Assembly: GCA_003452965.1 (NCBI GenBank)
Contig: DMMW01000084.1
Span: 20-64,019, forward strand
Reading direction: 5' to 3'
Length of the DNA stretch: 64,000 bases
From: Elusimicrobiota bacterium
GTDB taxonomy: Bacteria; Elusimicrobiota; UBA8919
In this document: positions 2,615-63,093 of the stretch, in pieces
Layout of the letters: every line of letters starts with the position of its first letter
How positions within the stretch are numbered: position 1 is the first letter of the stretch
Notes under the pieces: generated by a model
What the model was told of the DNA's origin: nothing
Databases searched by the model: none
Seen by the model: only the letters and a program-made list of their open reading frames with translations
Program-made: the position numbers and the translations under genes

Positions 2615-3598
2615 ATGCAAATAGGAATTATCGGGCTTCCAAATGTTGGGAAGTCCACACTTTTTAATGCGTTAACAAATGCAAATGCCGTTGTTGCAGA
2701 TTATCCTTTTACAACAATAGAACCGAACATAGGGATAGTTTCGGTTCCGGATACACGGCTTAAAAAACTTGGAGAAATTTATAAACCGGAAAAACTGACA
2801 CCTACTACTATACGTTTTGTTGATATTGCAGGTCTCGTCAAGGGCGCGTCAAAAGGTGAAGGGCTCGGCAATAAATTTCTTTCTCATATACGCGAAATGG
2901 ACGCTCTTGTCCAAGTGGTAAGTTGTTTCAGGGAAAACTGTAATCCTTCAGATGAAATAGAAACAATAAAACTGGAACTATTTTTAGCGGATTTGGAAGT
3001 TGTTGTCCGCAGGATATCTTCTATATCCCCAAAAGCGAAATGTGGTATTAAGGAAGCAAAAGAGGAATTAGAAATTCTTTATACAATAAAAGATTCAATT
3101 GAAAAAGGAAACGTATATAACTTTCGGGTGTCATCCGAATTGCAGCTTCTGACATCAATACCGATATTTTACATTGTCAATGTCAAAGACATAAATTTTC
3201 AAATTCCAAAAAGTAAATATGAATTAGTTCCGATTAATGCCAAACTTGAAAACGAAATTTTGGAACTTTCCGATGCGGAAAAGAAAGAATTGGAAGTAAA
3301 ATCGGATTTAGATAAACTGATTTTAGCGGGCTATAAGATTCTTGATTTAATAACATTTTATACGACAGTCGGAACCGAAATAAGGGCATGGAATATTAAA
3401 AAAGGAACTTCTGCACAGAAAGCTGCGGGCAAGATTCATAGCGATTTTGAAAAGAACTTTATAAGAGCCGAAGTTTTCAATTTTTCTGAACTTGAAAAAT
3501 ACGGTTCCGAAAAAACATTACGTGAAAACGGTCTTATCCGTGTTGAAGGCAAGGAATATGTAGTTAAAGACGGCGATGTAATGAATATAAAAATATGA
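2615..3598 (+). CDS. ychF: ribosome-binding ATPase YchF (Obg-family GTPase)
   Basis: MQIGIIGLPNVGKSTLFNALT G1 motif, TGS-like C-terminus; GGAG RBS before the ATG at 2615 (track ORF starts further upstream at 2573). Confidence 0.9.
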   Translation: MQIGIIGLPNVGKSTLFNALTNANAVVADYPFTTIEPNIGIVSVPDTRLKKLGEIYKPEKLTPTTIRFVDIAGLVKGASKGEGLGNKFLSHIREMDALVQVVSCFRENCNPSDEIETIKLELFLADLEVVVRRISSISPKAKCGIKEAKEELEILYTIKDSIEKGNVYNFRVSSELQLLTSIPIFYIVNVKDINFQIPKSKYELVPINAKLENEILELSDAEKKELEVKSDLDKLILAGYKILDLITFYTTVGTEIRAWNIKKGTSAQKAAGKIHSDFEKNFIRAEVFNFSELEKYGSEKTLRENGLIRVEGKEYVVKDGDVMNIKI

Positions 3599-4386
3599 AA
3601 AATCTTTCAAACTATTTTAATGTTGCAAAAAGTGCTGTTTTTAGTTCAGGGGAAATACTGAAAAAATACTTTTATGGTAATTTTAGGGTTGACTATAAAA
3701 GTGAGAGAAATCCTGTTACGACCGCAGATAAGAAATCCGAGAACAATATTAAGAGGATTTTAAGTGATAATTTTTCTAATATAGGTTTTTTATGTGAAGA
3801 AAGCTGTGACTTAGGAGTAGTCAATGAAAATGAATTGATGTGGATTTTGGACCCGCTAGACGGAACGGTCAATTTTGTACATAGATTACCTGTTTTTTCA
3901 ATTTCACTTGCACTCTACAATGGCAAGGAAGGTTTGTTGGGAATTGTTTATAATCCTATTAGCGGCGAATTTTTTTCTGCAATAAAAAATAAAGGCGCCT
4001 ATCTTAATAATAAAAGAATAGAAGTTTCTAATATAAATAATATTGAGCATTCACTATTGGTAACCGGTTTTCCATACGATTATAAGAAAAAAGAGAAGAA
4101 GGTATTAGGAAATTTCAAAAAATTTGTTTATCATGCGGAAGGTATAAGGCGGTTTGGTTCTGCTGCAATTGATTTGTGTTACGTGGCTTCAGGCCGTTTT
4201 GAAGGTTTTTGGGAAGAAGGATTAAAACCTTGGGATGTGGCTGCCGGTGCGGTTGTTTTGAAGGAATCTGGGGGAAAAATCTCGGATTATAAAGGTACGG
4301 AAGAATATTTATATAGCGGTAATCTTATAGCATCAAATTCAAAAATCCATAAAAAGATGTTTAATATTATCTGGAGGAAAGTATGA
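3595..4386 (+). CDS. inositol monophosphatase family protein (SuhB-like)
   Basis: WILDPLDGTVNF and WDVAAGAVVLKESGG motifs. Confidence 0.85.
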   Translation: MKNLSNYFNVAKSAVFSSGEILKKYFYGNFRVDYKSERNPVTTADKKSENNIKRILSDNFSNIGFLCEESCDLGVVNENELMWILDPLDGTVNFVHRLPVFSISLALYNGKEGLLGIVYNPISGEFFSAIKNKGAYLNNKRIEVSNINNIEHSLLVTGFPYDYKKKEKKVLGNFKKFVYHAEGIRRFGSAAIDLCYVASGRFEGFWEEGLKPWDVAAGAVVLKESGGKISDYKGTEEYLYSGNLIASNSKIHKKMFNIIWRKV

Positions 4387-5435
4387 TTTGCCCAAGTTGC
4401 GGTAATGTTTCCGAACAAAACGATAAGTATTGCAATCGGTGCGGTTTGGTTGTAAGCGTTAAAACACAAAAACTATTTGATAGCGTCGGTACATTGAGTT
4501 GGATTATGCGCCGTGCTTTAGGCGGTATGTTTGCAGGTATTATCGGATGGATACTTTCTATTGCATTGAGCCGTACTATAGGTTCTTCATCATCTATGAT
4601 TGTTCATTTGGTTGTAGGCGGAGCAATCGGTGGAGCGTTTTTAGGAAATGTGGGCGGCATTATTGAGCATTCGTCATATAAGGCATTCTTGGGTGGTATA
4701 TTGGGTTGTATAGGTGGTATATTGGGCGGTTTAATAAATAGACCTCTATATGATTATTTTTCTGCACATACTATGGCATATTCAATATCGCATTCTTTTT
4801 CTTGGTCTATTGCCGGGCTTTTTATCGGTGCTACAAGCGGTCTTATAGAAAAGAATATTAATAAAGTAATAGTAGGGGTGGTAGCCGGTTTTATAGGCGG
4901 AGCAATCGGCGGCGGTTTGGGTTCCGGTTTGTATGTATCTTTGGTGCTGGACATTAGTCGTCCTAATTGGATTACTGCAAGATTTGTTGAAGCGATTGCC
5001 GGTGCAGTTGTTGGAATGAATTTATGGTTCGTATTAGGGCTTGTAGAGAAAATATACATTTTTGACCGAAAGCAATTACGTGATGAGACCGAGAAAATTT
5101 GTGATTTTTGTAACGCACATAATTCGTTAAAAGCTTGGTATTGTAAAAACTGCGGCAAGGCGCTTCAGGTTTCAGCTTCCGTTGAAAAGCTTAAGATTAC
5201 GCCGTATAGGTCACTTGAAAGGATTGCAAATGCATTTAAATTTATTTCATGGCTATCCGCTGTTGCAGGAGTAGTGCTTGTTATAATAATATTCATTTTT
5301 TTATTATTTAAAAATCCGTTTTTTGCAGTATTTGTGTCTATAGCACTGGCTATTTTGGTTTATATAATTTCTGTTTTACTTAACGGGACTTCAGAAGTTA
5401 TTACTAAATTTATAAAATTAAGGGAATTGGAGTAA
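4383..5435 (+). CDS. membrane protein with N- and C-terminal zinc ribbons and glycine-zipper TM helices
   Basis: CPSCG..CNRCG at the N-terminus, CDFCNAHN..CKNCG near the C-terminus, several GxxxG-rich hydrophobic segments. Confidence 0.55.
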   Translation: MICPSCGNVSEQNDKYCNRCGLVVSVKTQKLFDSVGTLSWIMRRALGGMFAGIIGWILSIALSRTIGSSSSMIVHLVVGGAIGGAFLGNVGGIIEHSSYKAFLGGILGCIGGILGGLINRPLYDYFSAHTMAYSISHSFSWSIAGLFIGATSGLIEKNINKVIVGVVAGFIGGAIGGGLGSGLYVSLVLDISRPNWITARFVEAIAGAVVGMNLWFVLGLVEKIYIFDRKQLRDETEKICDFCNAHNSLKAWYCKNCGKALQVSASVEKLKITPYRSLERIANAFKFISWLSAVAGVVLVIIIFIFLLFKNPFFAVFVSIALAILVYIISVLLNGTSEVITKFIKLRELE

Positions 5436-5516
5436 AGGGTTATAGAGTTTTAGAGTTCGTAGAGTTTATAGGGTTAAAAATCCCGTAAACGATTATTTAA
5501 TAGGGAGAATAAGGTT

Positions 5517-6941
5517 ATGATTAAGTTTGGTACATCGGGTTGGAGAGGGATAATAGCAGATGATTTTACATTTGATAATGTTAAAATTGTAACACAGGCG
5601 ATAGCGGATTATGTAAAACAGAATAACAAAAATAATCCTAAAATAATTGTTGGTTATGATCCGCGTTTTCATTCTGAAAATTTTTCAAAATTATCATCGT
5701 CCGTACTTGCAGGAAATGGGATAAAGGTTTTGCTTACAAAAAGGGATTGTCCGACACCCGTTATATCTTACGAAATAATTCGCAGGAAAACGGACGGTGG
5801 CATAAATTTTACTGCAAGTCATAATCCACCTGAATACAACGGATTAAAATTTTCGCCTTCATGGGGCGGACCTGCACTTCCCGAAACAACAAAAGCGATT
5901 GAAAAAAGGTGCGAAGAATTGTTACAGGCATCATCGAAAACGGAAATTAAAGAAATTGATTTTTCAGAAGGGAAAAAGAAAGGATTAATTGAAGAGATTG
6001 AACCTGAAAATCTTTATATTAAACGTTTGCATCAACTGGTAGACTTGAAAGCGATTAAAAAGTCAAATCTGAAGATGATAATAGATCTTCTATACGGTAC
6101 AGGACGCGGATATCTGGATAAGATTCTTGAAGATACGGGATGTAGAGTGAAAGTTTTGCACAATTACAGGGATGTGCTTTTTGGCGGACATCCACCGGAA
6201 CCGTCAAAGGAAAACCTCGGTGAATTACTGAAAATTTTGAAAAAAGAAAAATATAATCTCGGGCTCGGAACGGATGGTGACGCTGATAGATTCGGAATAA
6301 TAGATAGAGATGGTACTTTTATTACTCCTAACGATACGATAGCGCTTCTGCTTAATCATCTTGTGAAAACCAGGAATTGGAAGGGTGTTGTTGCACGTTC
6401 TGTTATGACAACGCACTTGGTTGATGCGGTTGCAAAAAAACATGGTATTGAAGTAAGGGAGACACCAGTCGGTTTTAAATATATAGGCGACGTGATGCTT
6501 AAGGAAGATATGATAATAGGCGGTGAAGAATCAGGCGGACTTACCATATTGGGTCATATACCGGAAAAAGATGGGATTTTGGCTTGTCTTCTGGTAGCTG
6601 AAATGGTGGCTATAAATAAAAAGCCGATTAAAGAGATTTTAAAGCAGATTTACAAAGAAGTAGGAGTGATATTATCAACAAGGCTTAATTTCCGTATGCC
6701 GCAAGAAAAAATGGAACAGGTAAAATCTAAATTGGCGCAGAATCCACCTTCGGAAATAGCTTCACTCAAAGTTAAGGATATAAATAAACTTGACGGCTAC
6801 AAATTTATACTTGAAGACGGTTCTTGGGTAGGATTGCGACTTTCTGGCACGGAGCCGGTTATAAGAATTTATGTTGAAGCGAGCAACAATAAAAAAATAA
6901 ACGCATTAGCGGATGCCTCAAAAAAATTCTTAAGCGACTAA
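5517..6941 (+). CDS. phosphoglucomutase/phosphomannomutase (alpha-D-phosphohexomutase family)
   Basis: GTSGWRG N-terminal motif, TASHNP active-site serine loop, GEESGG sugar-binding loop. Confidence 0.85.
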   Translation: MIKFGTSGWRGIIADDFTFDNVKIVTQAIADYVKQNNKNNPKIIVGYDPRFHSENFSKLSSSVLAGNGIKVLLTKRDCPTPVISYEIIRRKTDGGINFTASHNPPEYNGLKFSPSWGGPALPETTKAIEKRCEELLQASSKTEIKEIDFSEGKKKGLIEEIEPENLYIKRLHQLVDLKAIKKSNLKMIIDLLYGTGRGYLDKILEDTGCRVKVLHNYRDVLFGGHPPEPSKENLGELLKILKKEKYNLGLGTDGDADRFGIIDRDGTFITPNDTIALLLNHLVKTRNWKGVVARSVMTTHLVDAVAKKHGIEVRETPVGFKYIGDVMLKEDMIIGGEESGGLTILGHIPEKDGILACLLVAEMVAINKKPIKEILKQIYKEVGVILSTRLNFRMPQEKMEQVKSKLAQNPPSEIASLKVKDINKLDGYKFILEDGSWVGLRLSGTEPVIRIYVEASNNKKINALADASKKFLSD

Positions 6942-8121: not shown

Positions 8122-8200
8122 TAGTGCCTGCCCGCCCCCACCACTGAAACGTTGGCGGGCAAGAAAGGTTTAGTGGCGGGCGATAGTGTGTCCGCCGTCC
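8110..8200. repeat. GC-rich hairpin element (MITE/REP-like) flanked by an 11-bp direct repeat GCGATAGTGTG
   Basis: GCGATAGTGTG at 8110-8120 and 8180-8190 flanks CCCACCACTGAAAC...GTTTAGTGGCGGG inverted arms; related copies at 39590-39650 and 45165-45225 (inverted). Confidence 0.6.
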
Positions 8201-20172: not shown

Positions 20173-20828
20173 GTATAGAGATTTCACCGTCAATATTATC
20201 TGCGGATTTTTCAAACTTAATATCTGATATCAGCGAATGTGAAAAAGAGAATATCGGTATTTTTCATATTGATGTAATGGATGGTCATTTCGTGCCCAAC
20301 ATAACAATAGGTTCTGTGGTAGTTGAATCAATAAGAAAAAAAACTAAATCTATCTTGGATACACATCTGATGATCGAAAATCCGGAGCGTTATGTAGAAG
20401 CGTTTGCAAAAGCGGGCAGCGACTGGATAACTTTCCATATTGAAACGACAAACAGTCCGTTAGGGATAATAAAAAAAATAAAAGATTTAAATGTAAAAGC
20501 CGGAATTTCATTAAATCCCGGAACCCCGATAGAAAAGATTAAACCGTATCTTGAAGATGTTTTTATGGTTATGGTAATGAGCGTCAATCCCGGTTTTGGC
20601 GGCCAGAAATTCATGCCAACAGTTTTATCAAAAGTAAGCCGGCTTAAGGAATGTAGGGGGAAACTTAAAAATAAATTTAAAATAGGTATTGATGGTGGAA
20701 TAAATTTTGATACGATATCCGAGGTTGTGAAAGCAGGTGCTGAATTGGTTGTGGCCGGTTCCGCAGTATTTAAAACCGAATTAGGGATTAGAAAAAGCAT
20801 AGAAAAACTAAGAGAATTATCAAAATAG
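20169..20828 (+). CDS. rpe: ribulose-phosphate 3-epimerase
   Basis: SILSADF, HIDVMDGHFVPN and MVMSVNPGFGGQKF motifs. Confidence 0.92.
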   Translation: MSIEISPSILSADFSNLISDISECEKENIGIFHIDVMDGHFVPNITIGSVVVESIRKKTKSILDTHLMIENPERYVEAFAKAGSDWITFHIETTNSPLGIIKKIKDLNVKAGISLNPGTPIEKIKPYLEDVFMVMVMSVNPGFGGQKFMPTVLSKVSRLKECRGKLKNKFKIGIDGGINFDTISEVVKAGAELVVAGSAVFKTELGIRKSIEKLRELSK

Positions 20829-20829
20829 T

Positions 20830-20871
20830 TCATCCGCCTACGCTCTATCGAGCTTCGGCGAGACAAGGGGG
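20830..20871 (-). repeat. partial inverted copy of the 114-bp dispersed repeat; its G-run forms the rpsP RBS
   Basis: Reverse complement matches CCCTTGTCTCGCCGAAGCTC.TA.GAGCGTAGGCGGA of the elements at 45231-45344 and 62627-62740. Confidence 0.6.
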
Positions 20872-29558: not shown

Positions 29559-29957
29559 ATGTATAAAAAACCGATTTTTGTGGTTCATAAACATTCAGCG
29601 AAACATTTGCATTATGATTTTCGGCTTGAACATAGCGGTGTTTTAAAGAGTTGGGCGATTCCAAAAGAACCTGTAAATGATTCAAAGATAAAGAGATTAG
29701 CGATATGGGTAGATGACCATCCTCTTGATTATGCAGATTTTTCAGGCATAATTCCCGAAGGCAAGTACGGTGCAGGAAAAGTTGAAATATGGGATAGGGG
29801 TGAATACACTCCGATAAAGTTTGAAGAAGACGAAGTAATTTTTAATCTTCAGGGAGAAAGATTAAAGGGAAATTTTTGTTTGCTTAAGTTGAAAAAAAAT
29901 AATACCAAAGGTAAAAATTGGCTGTTTTTTAAAATGCATCAAAAAGGCAGCGGATAG
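29559..29957 (+). CDS. stand-alone DNA ligase D 3'-phosphoesterase (PE) domain protein
   Basis: FVVHKHSAKHLHYDFRLE..LKSWAIPK..HPLDYADF..IPEGKYGAG.VEIWDRGEY matches the LigD PE domain signature end to end. Confidence 0.8.
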   Translation: MYKKPIFVVHKHSAKHLHYDFRLEHSGVLKSWAIPKEPVNDSKIKRLAIWVDDHPLDYADFSGIIPEGKYGAGKVEIWDRGEYTPIKFEEDEVIFNLQGERLKGNFCLLKLKKNNTKGKNWLFFKMHQKGSG

Positions 29958-30030
29958 CGTTCCGCCAGCTGGCGGGGAGGTTAGCGTATAGTGAAAAGAG
30001 ATAATAAAAATTAAATACTAACCTCTAACC
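29943..30030 (+). repeat. dispersed repeat with CCGCCAGCTGGCGG palindrome and GAGGTTAG/CTAACCTC inverted termini
   Basis: Near-identical inverted copy at 38741-38830; the first 25 bp also occur as a direct repeat at 29487-29515 on the other side of the PE gene. Confidence 0.65.
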
Positions 30031-30055
30031 CCTGATTTCAAAGAAGGATGTTAAA

Positions 30056-31171: not shown

Positions 31172-31185
31172 AAAAGTTAATATAT

Positions 31186-31315
31186 ACGACCTCCGTGGTT
31201 TACCCCGATGGATCGGGGTTGTTTACTCGGTCGTTGCAGTAGCTACGACCTCCGTGGTTTACCCCGATGGATCGGGGTTGTTTACTCGGTCGTTGCAGTA
31301 GCTACGACCTCCGTG
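31186..31315. repeat. 59-bp GC-rich structured tandem repeat, 2.2 copies
   Basis: Unit ACGACCTCCGTGGTTTACCCCGATGGATCGGGGTTGTTTACTCGGTCGTTGCAGTAGCT starts at 31186, 31245 and 31304 (partial); nested stems ACGACC/GGTCGT and CCCCGAT/ATCGGGG. Confidence 0.85.
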
Positions 31316-33811: not shown

Positions 33812-33945
33812 GACATCCTAAAAAAGAAAAGATGTCTGATTACATAGATTAGAAAACAGATTACACAGATTTTATTATAGGATTAGGTTCTAATCGGTGT
33901 AATCGATGTTAATAATCTGAGTAATCATTTTATTAAGGAAAATTT

Positions 33946-38740: not shown

Positions 38741-38830
38741 GTATAGAGATTAGAGGTTAGTATTTAATTTTTATTATCTCTTTTCAATATACGCTAACCT
38801 CTCCGCCAGCTGGCGGAACGCTATCCGCTG
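38741..38830 (-). repeat. inverted copy of the CCGCCAGCTGGCGG-containing dispersed repeat
   Basis: Reverse complement is about 95% identical to 29943-30030. Confidence 0.65.
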
Positions 38831-39505: not shown

Positions 39506-39570
39506 GTATACAGAGTATACAGAGTATACAGAGTATACAGAGTATACAGAGTATACACATAGTATACTTC
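39506..39570. repeat. tandem 9-mer (GTATACAGA) x6 microsatellite
   Basis: Direct reading of the sequence; degenerate 7th unit. Confidence 0.8.
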
Positions 39571-39711
39571 GTTACTGAATTATAGGGTTTTATAGTTATT
39601 CCGCTATTTCATCCACTAAAACACTGGCGGGCAAGATAGAATCAGTATCGGGATGGATGATCTCTGTAAATTGTAGTGTTGTTTTTTTAATTCCTCAAGT
39701 GATAATTAAAG

Positions 39712-40413: not shown

Positions 40414-40518
40414 ATTGTGACTATCTATAGGTCACTATATAGGTCAGTCGGGCACAATCCCACAGTCCCGCTGTCGCATAATTTTATACATTAATTAAAT
40501 AATGAAAGTGGAGGAAAA

Positions 40519-44078: not shown

Positions 44079-45155
44079 ATGATGATATTATTAGGTATTG
44101 CAGCTGTCGCTGTAATGTTTGGTTTTGTAATAATGATTCATGAGTTAGGGCATTTTATTGTTGCGAAAAAACAAAAAGTGAAAGTTTTAAATTTTTCCTT
44201 TGGTTTCGGTCCTGAATTATTCGGGTGGACTAAAAATGAAACAAGATATTCGGTAAGGCCTATACCTTTTGGCGGTTTTGTTAAGATGGCAGGCGAGGAT
44301 ATTGAAGAATATAAAGGAGATTCAGGCGATTTTTTTTCCAAAAAATGGTATCAGAGAATAGCAATAGTTGTGGCAGGTCCTATAATGAACTATTTATCGG
44401 CTTTTTTTATATTTCTATTCATTATAGTTGTTTGGGGGATACAATATCAAAGGCCTGTAGTAAAATTGGTGGAAAAAAATTCACCGGCTTTTGATGCTGG
44501 CTTAAAATCTGGTGATGAAATCGTTGCAATTAATAATGATAAAATTCAGGATGCCCAAACAGTTTCAAGAATCGTAAAAACTTCTAGTGGAAAAGAACTG
44601 ACATTTTCGCTGAAAAGAAGCGAGAATATTATAGATTTAAAAATAACGCCTAAATACGACGAAAAATTGAAATCTTCAAGGATTGGAATAGTTTATGATA
44701 TGTCATCTGAACCTGTGGTTGTAAAAGTCGGTTTAAATAAGGCAATAAAGGAATCTTTTAATAACATAGTTTTTTGGACGGTATTACCGCTAAAGTATCT
44801 CTATATGAAACTTGTACTTTTTGAAGCACCCTCTGAAGTCTCCGGTCCCATTGGTATTATGCAAGCCGCGTATTTTGCGGCAAAACTTGGCATTAAAACT
44901 TTTCTTAGTTTTATTGCGATTGTTTCCGTTGCATTAGGGATGTTCAATTTATTTCCGATACCGATAGTTGATGGCGGACATATAGTGTTTTATTTGATTG
45001 AGGGAATAACAGGAAAACCGATAAATAAAAAGGCGATGCAATTAGCTAATTCTATTGGTTTTGCGCTTTTATTAACACTTGCACTTTATGCAACATATCA
45101 GGATATATTAAGGACAAAAGACGGCTTCTGGAAAAAAATAGAACAAACAAAATAG
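44079..45155 (+). CDS. rseP: RIP site-2 zinc metalloprotease RseP
   Basis: HELGHF HExxH motif in TM1, PDZ domain, C-terminal LDG motif (IVDGGHIV). Confidence 0.9.
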   Translation: MMILLGIAAVAVMFGFVIMIHELGHFIVAKKQKVKVLNFSFGFGPELFGWTKNETRYSVRPIPFGGFVKMAGEDIEEYKGDSGDFFSKKWYQRIAIVVAGPIMNYLSAFFIFLFIIVVWGIQYQRPVVKLVEKNSPAFDAGLKSGDEIVAINNDKIQDAQTVSRIVKTSSGKELTFSLKRSENIIDLKITPKYDEKLKSSRIGIVYDMSSEPVVVKVGLNKAIKESFNNIVFWTVLPLKYLYMKLVLFEAPSEVSGPIGIMQAAYFAAKLGIKTFLSFIAIVSVALGMFNLFPIPIVDGGHIVFYLIEGITGKPINKKAMQLANSIGFALLLTLALYATYQDILRTKDGFWKKIEQTK

Positions 45156-45164
45156 AGAAACGAT

Positions 45165-45225
45165 TATTTACCCGCCAATGGTTCCTTGTCCGCCAATGCT
45201 TTAGTGGTGGAAGTGGTGGGCACAG
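45165..45225 (-). repeat. GC-rich hairpin element, inverted copy of the 8127-8200 family
   Basis: Reverse complement reads CCACCACTAAAGCATTGGCGGACAAG, cf. CCACCACTGAAACGTTGGCGGGCAAG at 8138. Confidence 0.55.
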
Positions 45226-45230
45226 ATTAT

Positions 45231-45344
45231 GGAACCCCGTAGAACGGGGTTGTAGCCTTGTTCGGTGCGGTAGGTCCCTTGTCTCGCCGAAGCTCATAAG
45301 AGCGTAGGCGGACGAACTTCGTGTACAAGATTACACAGATTAAG
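45231..45344 (+). repeat. 114-bp dispersed repeat, copy 1
   Basis: About 97% identical to 62627-62740; begins GGAACCCCGTAGAACGGGG and ends ATTACACAGATTAAG. Confidence 0.85.
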
Positions 45345-45473
45345 ACATGATGAAGACAAAGTGAAAAAAGAATCTGATTATTGCAACAAAAGTTACATTT
45401 GAAATTTTGTCTGATAACTCCAGCTTCGTAGGAAGTCTTGCAAAAAATAATTGAAGGTTTAGACAAATAGAAA

Positions 45474-46565
45474 ATGAATATAATAGGTAAAATAACAGGT
45501 ATAAAATATAAAGTAATTCTATCTGAGAACTTAAAGAAAGTTGACATCAAAAATTTTGACATCAACGAAGCACCTTCGTCTTGTGTTATTACAGATAATA
45601 AACATTCTTTTGCTATTTCAAAGTGGGTTTCACCCAAGCGGACACGTTCATATCCATTTGAACGAGTTTTTAACACGCTCAACATTTCAAGGAAAATTAC
45701 TGTTATACCAATCGTAAAAGATGAAGGAGCAAAAGGAGACAGGGATTTCATACAGTGGGACACAGTTTCTTTAATGTCGTTGTTAGACGTGTTTGTAATT
45801 TTTGCTTATTACATAAAAGCGGAAAAAGTAAACCGAAAAATAACCAACCAACAATTTGACAACAAATATGTTCTCTCTAAAATTAAAGAAATTAAACAAT
45901 ATCACAGTTCGGCATTACATTGGAATTTAAACGAAATCAACACTAACTTGCATAACATCATTAACAAAGTAAAATCTTTCTACGCAAAAATTGAAAAATC
46001 AACAAACGTAAAACTTCACGGTTCGAAGGGTACTGGAAATTTTCAAAATAAAATTGGAAAAGATGTTTCATTATTTATGGCATTTTCTAGAGGGAAAGCA
46101 GAAAGAGCTCAATCAATAGAATTTGTAACCCGTCAACCTAAGGAAAGTTTATCGACACTCTCAAAAGCAAAAATTACCATTACAAACTATTTGGGTGGAC
46201 AGTATTTTTTTACTGTAGATGAGATACTTATTACGAAAGAAAAAGTAAGTTTAATAGAAAGTAAACACAGTAAAAATGTAACACTTCCGAGTAAAAGCGA
46301 CATCAAAGATGGTTTGCTGAAAATGATTTTGTATTGCAACTTAACGGATGTAACAGTAAACGGAATAAAAATTAAATGTGAAGCTGTTTTATGTTTGACA
46401 TCTTCAAAACTTAAAGGAGGAATTTCATCCTTCAGTACTAAAAGTGAACTTTCAACGTTTTTTGCGAAAAATAATCTTTCAGAATCACAAATTTTTCTAA
46501 TTGAAACGGTAATAGCAGAAGCGAAACAAAATAAGTTTATAATTAAGGTAAAATATTCAAAATGA
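45474..46565 (+). CDS. putative type II restriction endonuclease (unrecognised family)
   Basis: 363-aa ORF translationally coupled (ATGA overlap) to a Dam-family MTase; candidate PD-(D/E)xK-like residues in TVDEILITKEKVSLIESKHS. Confidence 0.45.
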   Translation: MNIIGKITGIKYKVILSENLKKVDIKNFDINEAPSSCVITDNKHSFAISKWVSPKRTRSYPFERVFNTLNISRKITVIPIVKDEGAKGDRDFIQWDTVSLMSLLDVFVIFAYYIKAEKVNRKITNQQFDNKYVLSKIKEIKQYHSSALHWNLNEINTNLHNIINKVKSFYAKIEKSTNVKLHGSKGTGNFQNKIGKDVSLFMAFSRGKAERAQSIEFVTRQPKESLSTLSKAKITITNYLGGQYFFTVDEILITKEKVSLIESKHSKNVTLPSKSDIKDGLLKMILYCNLTDVTVNGIKIKCEAVLCLTSSKLKGGISSFSTKSELSTFFAKNNLSESQIFLIETVIAEAKQNKFIIKVKYSK

Positions 46566-47491
46566 TAAAAAGCCCACTAAGATATCCTGGAGGCAAAAGT
46601 AGAGCTGTTAAATTGATATCAACTCTTTTGCCAGAATTTGACGAATTTAGAGAACCATTTTTAGGTGGTGGTTCTCTTTTTATTTATGTTAAACAACGAT
46701 TTCCTAATAAGAAATATTGGATTAACGACCTCTATTTAGAACTTTTTAAATTTTGGGAAATGGCACAAAAAGATGTCGATACTTTGATTGACAATATTTA
46801 TGAATGGCGAAATAAATATCCAGTTGGAAAAGAGTTACATAAATTTTTAAATAATAATTTAGAGGGGTTTAACGATTTGGAGAGGGCTGCAGCATTTTTT
46901 ATCTACAATCGTATAACATTTTCAGGAACAAGTTTAAGTGGTGGTTTTAGTGAAGGTGCTTTTACGGGACGTTTTACAAAAAGCAGTATTCAACGACTTA
47001 ACCAATTTGCTAAAGTAATTAATGGCTCAACTATCACTAATCTTGACTACGAAGAATTAGTAAAACAAGAAGGCGAAAATGTATTTATCTTTCTTGATCC
47101 ACCGTATTTTTCTGCGACAAAATCCGCACTATATGGAAAGAATGGGAATATGCATAAGTCGTTTGACCATAAAAAATTTGCAGAAATAATGCGAAATTGC
47201 AAACATAAATGGCTCATAACTTATGATGACAGTGAATATATAAGAGAGCTTTTCTCATTTGCTAACATCATTCCTTGGGATTTAACTTATGGAATGCGGA
47301 ACGTAACCAAGGGTTCAAACCAGAAAGGAAAAGAACTTTTTATATCAAACTATTTAAAACAACTTCCCAGAAAACAACAGATGACTTTATTTGAGCCGAA
47401 AGTGAAATATGTAGCTAAAAAAGAATCATATCACATTTCGTCACCAAGTAAAAAGAGGAATATACATAAAAGTAAAAGAAACGGGTTTTAA
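46562..47491 (+). CDS. N6-adenine DNA methyltransferase, D12 class (Dam family)
   Basis: PLRYPGGKSR N-terminus, FxGxG motif (EPFLGGGSLF), catalytic DPPY (IFLDPPYF). Confidence 0.85.
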   Translation: MIKSPLRYPGGKSRAVKLISTLLPEFDEFREPFLGGGSLFIYVKQRFPNKKYWINDLYLELFKFWEMAQKDVDTLIDNIYEWRNKYPVGKELHKFLNNNLEGFNDLERAAAFFIYNRITFSGTSLSGGFSEGAFTGRFTKSSIQRLNQFAKVINGSTITNLDYEELVKQEGENVFIFLDPPYFSATKSALYGKNGNMHKSFDHKKFAEIMRNCKHKWLITYDDSEYIRELFSFANIIPWDLTYGMRNVTKGSNQKGKELFISNYLKQLPRKQQMTLFEPKVKYVAKKESYHISSPSKKRNIHKSKRNGF

Positions 47492-47706
47492 TTTTTGAAA
47501 CATAACACACAACTGTTATCTTTGTAAGTTTGATTTTTCCACTTTTCATCAGAAGTTTTTATGGAGGATTGGAAACAATAAGTTGCTATTATCTTCTCAA
47601 GTCGGAATCTTATTAAGTAAAGAGATAAAGAGGTAGTTGATAGATTGGTTATCAATGCACAATCGCACAATCCCACTATCACGCTATATCACGAATTTTT
47701 AGTATT

Positions 47707-48858
47707 ATGAAGACAAAGAAAGTTAGAATAGGAAATATATATATAGGTGGTGGTGAGCCTGTCCGTGTTCAGTCAATGACAAAGACAAAAACGGCAGACT
47801 GGAAATCCACTGTTAATCAAATAAGAAAACTGCAGGTCTTGGGTTGTGAGATTATCCGTGTTGCAGTTCCCGATATGAATTCTGCAAAAGTTCTTTCAAA
47901 AATAAAAAAAAACATAAAAATTCCTTTGGTTGCAGATATTCATTTTGATTGGCGGTTAGCGGTTGAAGCGATAAATCAAGGTGTTGATAAAATAAGGATT
48001 AATCCAGGCAATATCGGTTCCCGGGAAAATGTAGAGAAAATCATAATTGCTGCAAAAAAAAAGAAAGTAGCCATCCGTGTAGGTGTAAATGCAGGTTCTT
48101 TAAAAATTCTTAAAAAGTCTGACAGTTGGACGAAGATGTCTACTAAAGAACGTGCTTATCAGATGGTAAAGGAATTACTGGAAAATATTAAAATTATTGA
48201 AGAAATGAATTTTTCCGATATAGTAGTATCATTAAAAGCAAACGATGTTCCGACAACAATTCTGGCAAACGAATTGTACTCAAAAAGAAGAAAATATCCG
48301 ATTCATTTGGGTATTACAGAAGCAGGCACGGAGTTTTCCGGCATCATAAAGTCAGCGGCAGCATTCGGAGTCCTGCTTAATCAAGGGATAGGTGATACTA
48401 TAAGAGTCTCTTTGACCGCTTTGCCGGACGAAGAAATAAAAACCGGGTGGGAAATTTTGAAAACACTTGGTTTAAGAAAAAGAGGGATAGAAATTATTTC
48501 CTGTCCAACTTGTGGCAGATGTCAAACAGATTTAATTAAAATCGTCCATCAGTTAGAAAAACAAATTACAAATTATCCGCCCCGAATCCGCCAGCTGGCG
48601 GATGGGGCGAGACCTCGCCAAAGGTTCAGTGGTGGGCAAATTACAAATTCGCCACTGAAAGTTGCCGTCATGGGTTGTGTCGTAAACGGCCCAGGAGAGG
48701 CAAGAGATGCTGATATAGGAATTGCCGGCGGAAAAGGATTCGGTTTGCTTTTTAAAAAAGGTAAAGTAATAAAGAAAATACCTCAAAATAAATGGGTCGT
48801 TGAAATAATAAAAGAGATTAAAAACAGTCAGTATAAATCAGTTTTAGAATCTGTTTAA
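47707..48858 (+). CDS. ispG: 4-hydroxy-3-methylbut-2-enyl diphosphate synthase (IspG/GcpE)
   Basis: TIM-barrel N-domain; 4Fe-4S Cys motifs CPTCGRC and GCVVNGPGE; carries a repeat-derived insert of about 25 aa between them. Confidence 0.9.
   Translation: MKTKKVRIGNIYIGGGEPVRVQSMTKTKTADWKSTVNQIRKLQVLGCEIIRVAVPDMNSAKVLSKIKKNIKIPLVADIHFDWRLAVEAINQGVDKIRINPGNIGSRENVEKIIIAAKKKKVAIRVGVNAGSLKILKKSDSWTKMSTKERAYQMVKELLENIKIIEEMNFSDIVVSLKANDVPTTILANELYSKRRKYPIHLGITEAGTEFSGIIKSAAAFGVLLNQGIGDTIRVSLTALPDEEIKTGWEILKTLGLRKRGIEIISCPTCGRCQTDLIKIVHQLEKQITNYPPRIRQLADGARPRQRFSGGQITNSPLKVAVMGCVVNGPGEARDADIGIAGGKGFGLLFKKGKVIKKIPQNKWVVEIIKEIKNSQYKSVLESV
48576..48665 (+). repeat. GC-rich palindromic repeat inserted in frame inside ispG
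   Basis: Contains CCGCCAGCTGGCGG and the TTCAGTGGTGGG...CGCCACTGAAA hairpin shared with intergenic repeats; encodes YPPRIRQLADGARPRQRFSGGQITN. Confidence 0.7.
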
Positions 48859-54163: not shown

Positions 54164-54297
54164 TTGTTAAAAAACAATCAATGATTGCACAGATGAACAA
54201 CAAGATTACACAGATTAGAGCATGTAGTTAAATATTTGTAATTGTCTTTAAAAATCTGTGTAATCGCTTTTTGAAATCTGTGTAATCTGGAGTTCAA

Positions 54298-62594: not shown

Positions 62595-62626
62595 AGATTG
62601 TTGATAAAATCAACAATCTCTGATTA

Positions 62627-62740
62627 CACGGATTGGGGAACCCCGTAGAACGGGGATGTAGCCTTGTTCGGTGTGGTAGGTCCCTTGTCTCGCCGAAGCT
62701 CATAAGAGCGTAGGCGGACGAACTTCGTGTACAAAATTAC
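62627..62740 (+). repeat. 114-bp dispersed repeat, copy 2
   Basis: About 97% identical to 45231-45344; preceded by TGATTACACGGATT and ends AATTACACAGATTAAG. Confidence 0.85.
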
Positions 62741-63093
62741 ACAGATTAAGGCAAGACGTCAAGACCATTTGAGTTTTTTTTGATAGTCTCAAAGTGAAAA
62801 ATGTTGATTATTACAAAAAATTTTCAAAAACAGTAGAAAAAGATTTTTAATATTATAAGGTTATTGAAAAATCTCGTCAAGATGTCATTCCTGCAAAAGT
62901 AGGAATCTATACTCAGACATGAATGGATTCCCAATAATAATGTTCGGGAATGATGGCAAGGGATTTTTAACGACAAATTTGAAAATGATGATGCTTTTTT
63001 ATAATTCATTTCCAATCAGTCGGACACTGTCTGGACAATCTAAAAAAGATAAGGAAATTGTAATTGGTTGGAAATATTGACAAAATTATATAA

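Follow-up and report, generated by a model that had tools for sequence, protein, structure and literature searches.

The interval between rseP and ispG in the analysed stretch of 64,000 nucleotides (the window) very likely harbours a compact two-gene Type IIP restriction-modification (R-M) cassette of GGCC type (45463-47491), acquired from outside the phylum. The acquisition is recent and took place in one strain of an Elusimicrobia bacterium from groundwater, between two housekeeping genes. The cassette encodes a predicted PD-(D/E)XK endonuclease (R) and a DNA methylase (M) which, by its closest characterised relatives, is probably an N4-cytosine enzyme.

All features described below lie on the plus strand unless stated otherwise. 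The left flank is formed by rseP (44079-45155), which codes for an M50 site-2 protease (Pfam Peptidase_M50, E 1.9e-60, and PDZ), and the right flank by ispG (GcpE, 47707-48858; Pfam GcpE, E 1.3e-139). Pfam labels of called genes agree with the conserved upstream run rpsB-tsf-pyrH-frr-uppS-cdsA-dxr-rseP reported in the preliminary description; downstream of the cassette, the order is ispG-murC-murB-ddl-ftsQAZ. The interval between rseP and ispG contains a hairpin element rich in GC, a dispersed repeat of 130 nt and the genes for R (45474-46565, 363 aa; supported by the ORF list, PADLOC and an AlphaFold model) and M (46562-47491, 309 aa). The two are separate adjacent genes on the same strand, as in the Type II gene arrangement, and the overlap by ATGA noticed earlier can be read in the sequence at 46562-46565. 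R is preceded by a spacer (45349-45462) that resembles neither relatives nor other cassette carriers. The spacer between M and ispG (47492-47703) is the right end of the strain-variable block and holds a GCACAATC(G/C)CAC motif, belonging to repeat family D4, which also occurs upstream of frr. A promoter is presumed in the spacer 5' of R; in the promoter scan, counts were not above those of shuffles and no promoter was identified. A strong-looking TTGACA-16-TAAAAT site is located at 45856-45883, inside conserved coding sequence. Two ORFs on the minus strand (45227-45763; 47488-47682), which share sequence with R, the repeat and the spacer, have no support and are regarded as spurious.

The 2.5-kb gap before ispG was said to be unusual, and synteny in relatives confirms this: rseP and ispG are ~50-150 nt apart in ~60 related loci without the cassette. 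Neither R nor M is present at any of 80 ispG loci. A co-occurring strain (L096), which lacks the cassette, is 99.96% identical to the window up to position 45166 (2 mismatches in 5088 nt), and its RseP protein is 100% identical. Groundwater sample JGI 3300009296, for example, carries the cassette, and 3300025088 the L096 allele. After this position, it contains a 421-nt alternative segment with a small ORF, followed by ispG. Both sequences align again from 47704, and the first 165 nt of ispG are only 96.4% identical (blastn). The small ORF is homologous to that of a sister species (L007; 61% at the amino acid level), whose similarity to the window stops at about 45348. The locus is thus strain-variable, with different occupants between the same flanking genes in near-identical genomes. 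Loci L007-L011 have other occupants at the rseP-ispG junction, L010 in particular an unrelated Type IIG system. Together, relatives and the near-identical strain demonstrate insertion of the cassette into the dxr-rseP-ispG run. The block 45167-47703 would have replaced a small ancestral ORF in this variable slot, and exchange from strain to strain would be explained most simply by homologous recombination within the housekeeping genes on either side.

Cassette DNA was compared with copies from other phyla using blastn. It is 85.9% identical over 1997 nt to an Ignavibacteriaceae contig (L087), 79% to a Saprospiraceae copy and 75% to an Acidobacteriota copy. Nucleotide identity with the Ignavibacteriaceae copy is confined to 45463-47458, the horizontally transferred core, which starts 11 nt before R and leaves out the dispersed repeat. 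In 8 other contexts, with unrelated gene surroundings and in several phyla, R and M are likewise paired and overlap by 4 nt. That pairing and overlap are kept across phyla, at 73-87% protein identity, implies selection on both genes. Since the shared DNA comprises the two genes only and the contexts are unrelated, the cassette moves on its own. Its source would lie outside the phylum, the closest copies being in Ignavibacteria and Bacteroidota-type genomes. A tblastn search of 72,556 plasmids and 50,697 phage records returned no match to R. The earlier view of a horizontally acquired defence cassette is borne out by its absence in relatives and L096 and by 86% DNA identity across phyla. The compositional signal expected of an island did not appear. 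Compared with 61 host genes in GC, GC3 and synonymous-codon likelihood, R and M have z scores from -0.5 to -1.4, GC3 skew of R being the sole value outside this range (z -2.0). GC and codon usage are thus inside the host range and do not point to a foreign source.

The strain-variable block opens with the GC-rich hairpin element (45167-45220), which is supported by its fold and, in alignments, is absent from L096 and L007. Two stretches, 8138-8166 and 39601-39635, are weakly similar to it in inverted orientation. The hairpin element is followed by the dispersed repeat (45221-45350), a 99-nt GC-rich structured core (45230-45328) enclosed by two ATTACACAGATT motifs. This repeat had been described as 114 bp long; it is real, but its length is 130 nt. 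The region 45150-45360 folds better than 200 of 200 shuffles (z -2.96). A second full copy, 94% identical, is located 17 kb downstream (62627-62756), unconnected with the island, and no match of that quality occurs in shuffles of the window. An inverted stand-alone copy of a 43-nt conserved module of the repeat lies directly upstream of rpsP (20827-20869, minus strand). The 130-nt repeat is also where five short contigs of the same species break off, and a diverged copy (85%) with the same flanking motifs exists in another organism (L105). When the metagenome was scanned with the conserved 37-nt pattern of the repeat, only three stretches were retrieved, two from the same species and one from L105. 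Rfam identified no credible RNA family in the whole window (gathering thresholds) or in the left spacer (E <= 1).

These elements raise the question whether the repeat-bordered block is a mobile element, a MITE-like or attC-like repeat having mediated insertion of the R-M genes. The block that distinguishes the window from L096 does begin with the hairpin and the 130-nt repeat, and the Saprospiraceae carrier has its cassette flanked by ~90-nt direct repeats near an integron-cassette-type gene. However, the preliminary description, which saw the border of the cassette in the repeat, is matched on the left side only: no repeat, direct or inverted, occurs at the right border. The block contains two ORFs only and neither transposase nor integrase, so that both a recombinase gene and matching repeats at the two ends, as expected of a mobile island or MITE, are missing. 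Homology to other carriers leaves the repeat out (see above), and none of the six other carriers possesses it. L007 and L096 possess the motif pair that frames the repeat core but neither the core nor the R-M genes, and repeats of this sort fill about half of the larger intergenic spacers in the window. Insertion mediated by the repeat is therefore improbable. The GC-rich repeats are resident intergenic elements of the lineage, not the vehicle of the cassette.

M is an alpha-class (D12) DNA amino-methyltransferase, covered over its full length by PF02086 (E 3.4e-39). It contains the SAM-binding motif I of FxGxG type (FLGGG, 46658-46672, residues 33-37) and motif IV of (D/N/S)PP(Y/F) type (DPPY, 47096-47107, residues 179-182), the combination found in Type II methyltransferases. 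DPPY is typical of N6-adenine methylases and the D12 family is labelled "N6 adenine-specific" in Pfam; M had accordingly been placed in the Dam family. On that reading, the locus would be a Dam/DpnII-like system, with M methylating adenine at N6 (e.g. in GATC) and R as its cognate endonuclease. Yet M scores below curated cut-offs of the Dam models (TIGR00571, 88.2 bits against 114.85; NF008152, 42.4 against 441), which leaves it in the D12 class but outside the Dam subfamily. M matches the structures of E. coli Dam and DpnM only weakly (E 1e-4 to 2e-9), whereas the match to the N4-cytosine methylase M.CbeI (PDB 7m6b), its nearest characterised relative, is far stronger (E 4.4e-82). The two align over 275 aa, with 49% of positions identical, 70% similar and 3 gapped. 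This alignment spans the motif I-IV region together with the target-recognition domain. M.CbeI and DmtB are 57% identical to each other, both generate m4C in GGCC and both have DPPY (PMC3425538, PMC8616854); M.CbeI itself was formerly mis-annotated as an adenine methylase (PMC3425538). The product of M.Ssp6803II is GGm4CC (PMC6560206). M is thus probably a GGCC-specific N4-cytosine methylase, as predicted from these relationships, and not Dam, while 49% identity to M.CbeI is no guarantee of identical specificity.

Further, we examined avoidance of the candidate sites. GATC occurs far less often than expected in the window (O/E 0.24), as a Dam-like system might suggest, but relatives without the cassette show depletion to the same extent (0.18). 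Both GATC and TCGA are more depleted in the window than GGCC, which occurs 30 times against 80 expected (O/E 0.38), a depletion not stronger than in some relatives without the cassette at the locus (pooled 0.47). In 85 kb around the cassette in the six carriers from other phyla, 11 GGCC sites were observed against 149 expected (z -14), the strongest depletion among all 16 palindromic 4-mers. GGCC O/E is at most 0.23 in each of the six carriers (pooled 0.07), whereas 72 unselected loci have a median of 0.96 (p 5e-5, Mann-Whitney). GGCC is consistently the most avoided site in carriers, GATC is not. This avoidance, seen in a small sample, agrees with the reading of M as a GGCC m4C methylase. As R also lacks similarity to DpnII/MboI families (no Pfam match), a Dam/DpnII-like system is very unlikely.

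The preliminary description treated the 363-aa ORF of then unknown function as part of an R-M system. This reading is strengthened by PADLOC, where R matches the Type II REase model (REase_II, of unknown provenance) with E 1.7e-78, and by structure prediction. The AlphaFold model (AF2, diverse alignment) has pLDDT 95.2 and pTM 0.92; an earlier run with 44 close homologues (73-87% identity) gave pLDDT 60 overall and was confident in the C-terminal domain only. In the model, a PD-(D/E)XK core is formed by the C-terminal domain, at residues ~232-361. Predicted catalytic residues are D249 (46218-46220), E262 (46257-46259) and K264 (46263-46265). Among 58 homologues (26-58% identity), T97, N151 and E262 never vary and D249 and K264 rarely do, and R of the window has every family-conserved residue. 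R can thus be viewed as a predicted endonuclease, with a recognised nuclease fold in the model and conserved catalytic residues. The fold match to known nucleases is at domain level, with modest Z (5-7.5). Foldseek of R against PDB gave no significant full-length match (best E 0.12), and PDB sequence searches, with R alone or with the 58-sequence profile, gave no match up to E 10; the nuclease assignment thus relies on the modest-Z domain fold and the PADLOC model. Searches of Pfam (E <= 0.1) and NCBIfam assigned R to no family, apart from one chance 14-bit RlmC match.

The R family comprises about 500 clusters at 50% identity, is devoid of Pfam or NCBIfam models and of solved relatives, and its members are all publicly named "hypothetical protein". 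We conclude that R is a predicted PD-(D/E)XK restriction endonuclease of a widespread but unannotated family. The family may be the usual partner of DPPY-type N4-cytosine methylases, unrelated to HaeIII/CbeI, and may pass from phylum to phylum with DNA identity above 85%. Only tentatively do we propose, as one joint claim that is possible rather than likely, that this uncharacterised PD-(D/E)XK family is GGCC-specific and that the rseP-ispG junction of this Elusimicrobiota clade is a recurrent landing site for defence genes.

Solitary DmtB and M.Ssp6803II have regulatory effects (PMC3425538, PMC6560206), M strongly matches the PADLOC orphan-methylase model (E 1.9e-98) and GGCC depletion in the window is only moderate, but that M is likewise an orphan regulatory methylase, with R inactive or in another role, is hardly credible, given that R is an intact gene, conserved at 99-100% in 15 contigs and with all its family-conserved residues, that pairing and overlap persist across phyla, and that GGCC avoidance in carriers is as extreme as expected under restriction pressure.

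In the GGCC-type R-M cassette favoured here, M, of the M.CbeI/DmtB/M.Ssp6803II lineage, would most likely place its methyl group on N4 of the inner cytosine of GGCC, although its motif IV is DPPY. R, with D249 and E262-x-K264, would most likely cut unmethylated GGCC in incoming DNA, presumably as a homodimer. R precedes M, and the ATGA overlap would couple their translation.

The locus illustrates that adenine specificity cannot be concluded from DPPY and the Pfam "N6-adenine" label. For GGCC m4C enzymes of the widespread lineage of M, automated annotation, and with it the reading of metagenome methylomes, would be wrong. The locus is also a clean natural example of an R-M cassette whose presence varies from strain to strain within an uncultured Elusimicrobiota population; with a donor-like copy in another phylum, it is useful for study of cassette spread without recombinases. 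If the R family does cut GGCC, it would represent a structurally distinct family of HaeIII isoschizomers and a possible reagent. General understanding of R-M systems is unchanged; this is an ordinary defence system of known type.

Compared with known systems, R is only 10% identical in sequence to BsmI and other PD-(D/E)XK Type II enzymes. BsmI, of Type IIS, has 667 aa and two catalytic domains, whereas no internal duplication was detected between the N- and C-terminal halves of the 363-aa R (hhalign, probability 0.2%); a BsmI-like two-site monomer is thus unsupported by sequence. E. coli Dam and DpnII M1 share PF02086, fold class and DPPY with M but are distant from it, and predicted base and site differ. 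The closest parallel is CbeI/M.CbeI of Caldicellulosiruptor (Anaerocellum) bescii. M.CbeI is a full-length homologue of M with the same motif order, DPPY and a core of similar length; it likewise has an adjacent endonuclease gene, and target (GGCC) and product (m4C) are predicted to be the same. M differs in its 35-aa C-terminal tail, and its host is a mesophilic groundwater Elusimicrobiota bacterium rather than a thermophilic Firmicute. The CbeI endonuclease is HaeIII-like according to a reference cited in PMC3425538 (reference 24), whereas R forms its own family, with no HaeIII-like match among Pfam (E <= 0.1) and no NCBIfam match of note, as judged from these models. DmtB of Anabaena and M.Ssp6803II (Sll0729) of Synechocystis belong, by literature and via M.CbeI, to the same lineage with GGm4CC product (PMC3425538, PMC6560206); while these two act alone as regulators, M of the window would be translationally coupled to an endonuclease gene.

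The island is preceded by rpsB-tsf-pyrH-frr-uppS-cdsA-dxr-rseP and followed by ispG-murC-murB-ddl-ftsQ-ftsA-ftsZ, as the Pfam labels of genes called on identical public contigs confirm for both sides. Between the end of rseP (45155) and the start of ispG (47707), both on the + strand, ORF calling gives R, of 363 aa (45474-46565, +), and M, a methylase of 309 aa (46562-47491, +), which have 4 nt in common (ATGA, 46562-46565, read in the sequence). The preliminary description was right about coordinates and features. The window (1-64000) has roughly 63 genes, all of them + strand; across its 64 kb no Rfam family attains the gathering score.

A scan of species-representative genomes with ispG assigns the window to groundwater Elusimicrobiota; IspG of the nearest species is 75-78% identical. 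In about 60 of 80 returned loci dxr, rseP and ispG are neighbours, rseP and ispG being separated by roughly 50-150 nt, and an R or M homologue is absent from all 80 loci. Further, among contigs encoding identical RseP protein we found a near-identical strain (L096, JGI 3300025088) that differs from the window at 2 of 5088 nt as far as 45166. Beyond this point it carries 421 nt with a small ORF in place of the R-M block, and it rejoins at 47704, where ispG is just 96.4% identical across 165 nt. The block 45167-47703, comprising hairpin element, 130-nt repeat, R, M and both spacers, is therefore carried by one strain, while another strain of the same species has the ancestral small ORF instead. 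Since this ORF is common to the sister species L007 (61% identity, same location), the R-M state is derived. We infer that the abrupt left edge and the higher divergence in early ispG are the expected trace of homologous recombination in flanking genes.

In the five closest species (L007-L011) rseP-ispG gaps are wider and diverse. L007 has an unknown ORF of 124 aa and L008-L011 a UPF0047 (YjbQ-like) gene, accompanied in L008 by a metallophosphoesterase. L010 (Elusimicrobia bacterium CG06_land_8_20_14_3_00_38_11) has, in addition, a restriction system at 2696-6401: a Type IIG restriction-modification fusion of 1153 aa (PADLOC E 4.6e-51; Pfam N6_Mtase and Eco57I), with a RadC N-terminal fragment 5' of it. 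Such diverse occupants make the site 3' of rseP a variable slot in the clade. Two unrelated restriction systems have reached it independently, suggesting that the junction is a repeated landing site for defence genes.

Database homologues of R number about 4040. Identity is 72-99% for the best 120; those with names stem from Ignavibacteria, Bacteroidota, Chlorobi-type and Acidobacteriota MAGs, every one annotated as "hypothetical protein". Eight further contexts were inspected, each with a 363-aa R ahead of a D12 methylase, the 4-nt overlap being preserved and the surrounding housekeeping or accessory genes unrelated. The window and an Ignavibacteriaceae contig share 85.9% nucleotide identity over 1997 nt, confined to the stretch between 11 nt 5' of the R start and a point 33 nt short of the M stop. 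Such identity, limited to the two genes, strongly indicates that a bare two-gene unit was recently transferred between phyla. A TAnnTTTG-like element 5' of R is common to Bacteroidota-type carriers and missing from the window. No R homologue was found in plasmid and phage collections. The skew in GC content and codon usage that the preliminary description proposed to measure was not seen; R and M are inside the host range, so this test is uninformative here. In a Saprospiraceae MAG (L090) the pair lies between ~90-nt direct repeats (about 4700-4800 and 6950-7048 of L090) with terminal inverted ends CATAGTATT ... AATACTATG; group II intron reverse-transcriptase fragments and a gene bearing an integron-cassette domain (Hfx_Cass5) are nearby, possibly forming an integron-like cassette array. 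The proposal made from the sequence, that an R-M island gained by horizontal transfer breaks a conserved cluster, is directly demonstrated by relatives and a strain that lack it and by the cross-phylum DNA identity.

The island was also thought to be bordered by a dispersed repeat. The repeat is real; its length had been given slightly short. Its two copies of 130 nt (45221-45350 and 62627-62756) are 94% identical, and 45150-45360 folds more stably than 200 of 200 shuffles (z -2.96). Alignment with L007 and L096 reveals an ancestral host spacer 3' of rseP, GAAACGATTACACAGATT-(9 nt)-GATTACA(C/T)AGATT. Compared with these, the window has a 54-nt hairpin element placed within the first spacer motif, and a 99-nt GC-rich core in place of the 9-nt spacer. 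A core framed by the two motifs likewise occurs at 62622-62747 and, with 85% identity, in another organism (L105). The window (45276-45318 and 62682-62724) and this diverged copy (L105 4466-4502) agree perfectly in a GC-rich hairpin module of 43 nt, CCCTTGTCTCGCCGAAGCTC...AGAGCGTAGGCGGA, and the remainder of the repeat has drifted, which suggests a constrained structure or binding site. A lone inverted module lies directly 5' of rpsP (20827-20869); the module has no Rfam match. The 13-nt motif GATTACACAGATT (45221-45229, 45329-45341, 62622-62634, 62735-62747; L105 about 4430-4570) is paired at 21-22 nt spacing in intergenic spacers. Two sites have two direct and two inverted copies. Pairs in direct and inverted orientation are also present in the spacers 33838-33926 and 54183-54287. 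It is kept 3' of rseP in L007 (6455-6490) and L096 (5084-5118), and could be a protein-binding site, terminator or processing signal.

A role of the repeat at the island border is not supported. The right border of the block has no repeat, the other cassette carriers examined do not have this one, and the block contains no recombinase gene; moreover, GATTACACAGATT pairs also lie in other spacers, and other GC-rich repeat families occupy about half of the larger window spacers. Although the strain-variable block includes the repeat, nothing ties it mechanistically to the cassette, and their adjacency is unsurprising in this genome. Among other spacer repeats, a 59-nt GC-rich unit (ACCCCG...CGGGGT hairpin) occurs twice in perfect tandem at 31185-31302; it is related to the 5' half of the 130-nt repeat. 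An 86-nt inverted repeat (29948-30033 and 38745-38830) has one arm in each of two intergenic spacers; the arms are 95% complementary, lie at a distance of 8.7 kb and each contain the palindrome CCGCCAGCTGGCGG. In the spacer 5' of pyrH, GTATACAGA is repeated five and a half times in tandem (39509-39560). The motif GCACAATC(C/G)CAC...ATCAC, located 20-60 nt 5' of frr and ispG (40452-40488 and 47657-47701), may serve the host as promoter or leader; its copy within the block suggests that the block took shape inside an Elusimicrobiota lineage and only afterwards spread from strain to strain.

PF02086 (E 3.4e-39) identifies M as a D12-class (alpha) methyltransferase of full length, which scores below curated Dam-subfamily cut-offs. 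By far its top solved relative is 7M6B (E 4.4e-82, 49% identity, 275 aa); Dam and DpnM reach just E 1e-4 to 2e-9. 7M6B is M.CbeI of C. bescii, an alpha-class N4-cytosine methyltransferase protecting GGCC, which bears DPPY and was formerly mis-annotated as adenine methylase (PMC8616854; PMC3425538). The earlier assignment of M as N6-adenine methylase from its DPPY motif is thus probably wrong.

Palindrome avoidance was scored against a maximal-order Markov expectation. Of the 16 palindromic tetramers, GGCC is avoided most strongly across 85 kb of cassette-flanking DNA from six carriers in other phyla (11 observed vs 149.4 expected, O/E 0.07, z -14.2), and in every carrier it is within the three most avoided. 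Its O/E is at most 0.23 in 6/6 carriers, compared with a median of 0.96 in 72 loci picked regardless of cassette, 4 of which are at or below 0.25 (p 5e-5); this supports GGCC as cassette target, albeit from small samples. The window has 30 GGCC vs 80 expected (0.38) and its closest sister species, L007, 17 vs 19.9; the weaker depletion of the window relative to carriers fits recent arrival. A further caveat is that GATC, TCGA and CTAG are depleted more than GGCC in this clade, cassette present or absent; they stand at 0.2-0.3 of expectation in the window and related species, which points to other restriction systems in the clade.

R has no match in Pfam, NCBIfam or PDB sequence searches. It matches a PADLOC Type II restriction-enzyme model (E 1.7e-78) and, with residues 246-345, a second, shorter one. 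Exhaustive search places 495 clusters at 50% identity in its family. When 58 diverse members (26-58% identity) are aligned, T97, N151 and E262 never vary; among the near-invariant residues are D249, K264 and an N-terminal cluster (W51/K55/R56/R58 and K82-D83-E84-G85). The AlphaFold model from this alignment (pLDDT 95.2, pTM 0.92) consists of a beta-rich N-terminal domain, a helical middle and a C-terminal alpha/beta domain, where D249 and E262-x-K264 are on neighbouring strands. Structure comparison gave the same answer for the C-terminal domain of an earlier low-quality model. Foldseek gave no significant match, hence no close solved relative. We assign R to the PD-(D/E)XK restriction endonucleases, in a family for which no curated model exists. 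No internal duplication is detectable within R, which would act as a homodimer, the default for a palindromic target. In some family members of about 1000 aa (P0129, P0132, P0136), the R-like part is the C-terminal domain, with a von Willebrand factor A domain in addition, implying reuse of the nuclease module in another type of system.

The cassette is a Type II restriction-modification system of known kind. Useful by-products are the corrected base specificity, 86% DNA identity across phyla, within-species polymorphism and the finding that defence genes have entered the rseP-ispG slot more than once. M belongs to the lineage of M.CbeI and DmtB; the latter, 57% identical to M.CbeI, likewise makes m4C in GGCC (PMC3425538), and GGm4CC is also the product of M.Ssp6803II (PMC6560206). 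Unlike the HaeIII-like partner of M.CbeI, R comes from a distinct, unannotated PD-(D/E)XK family.
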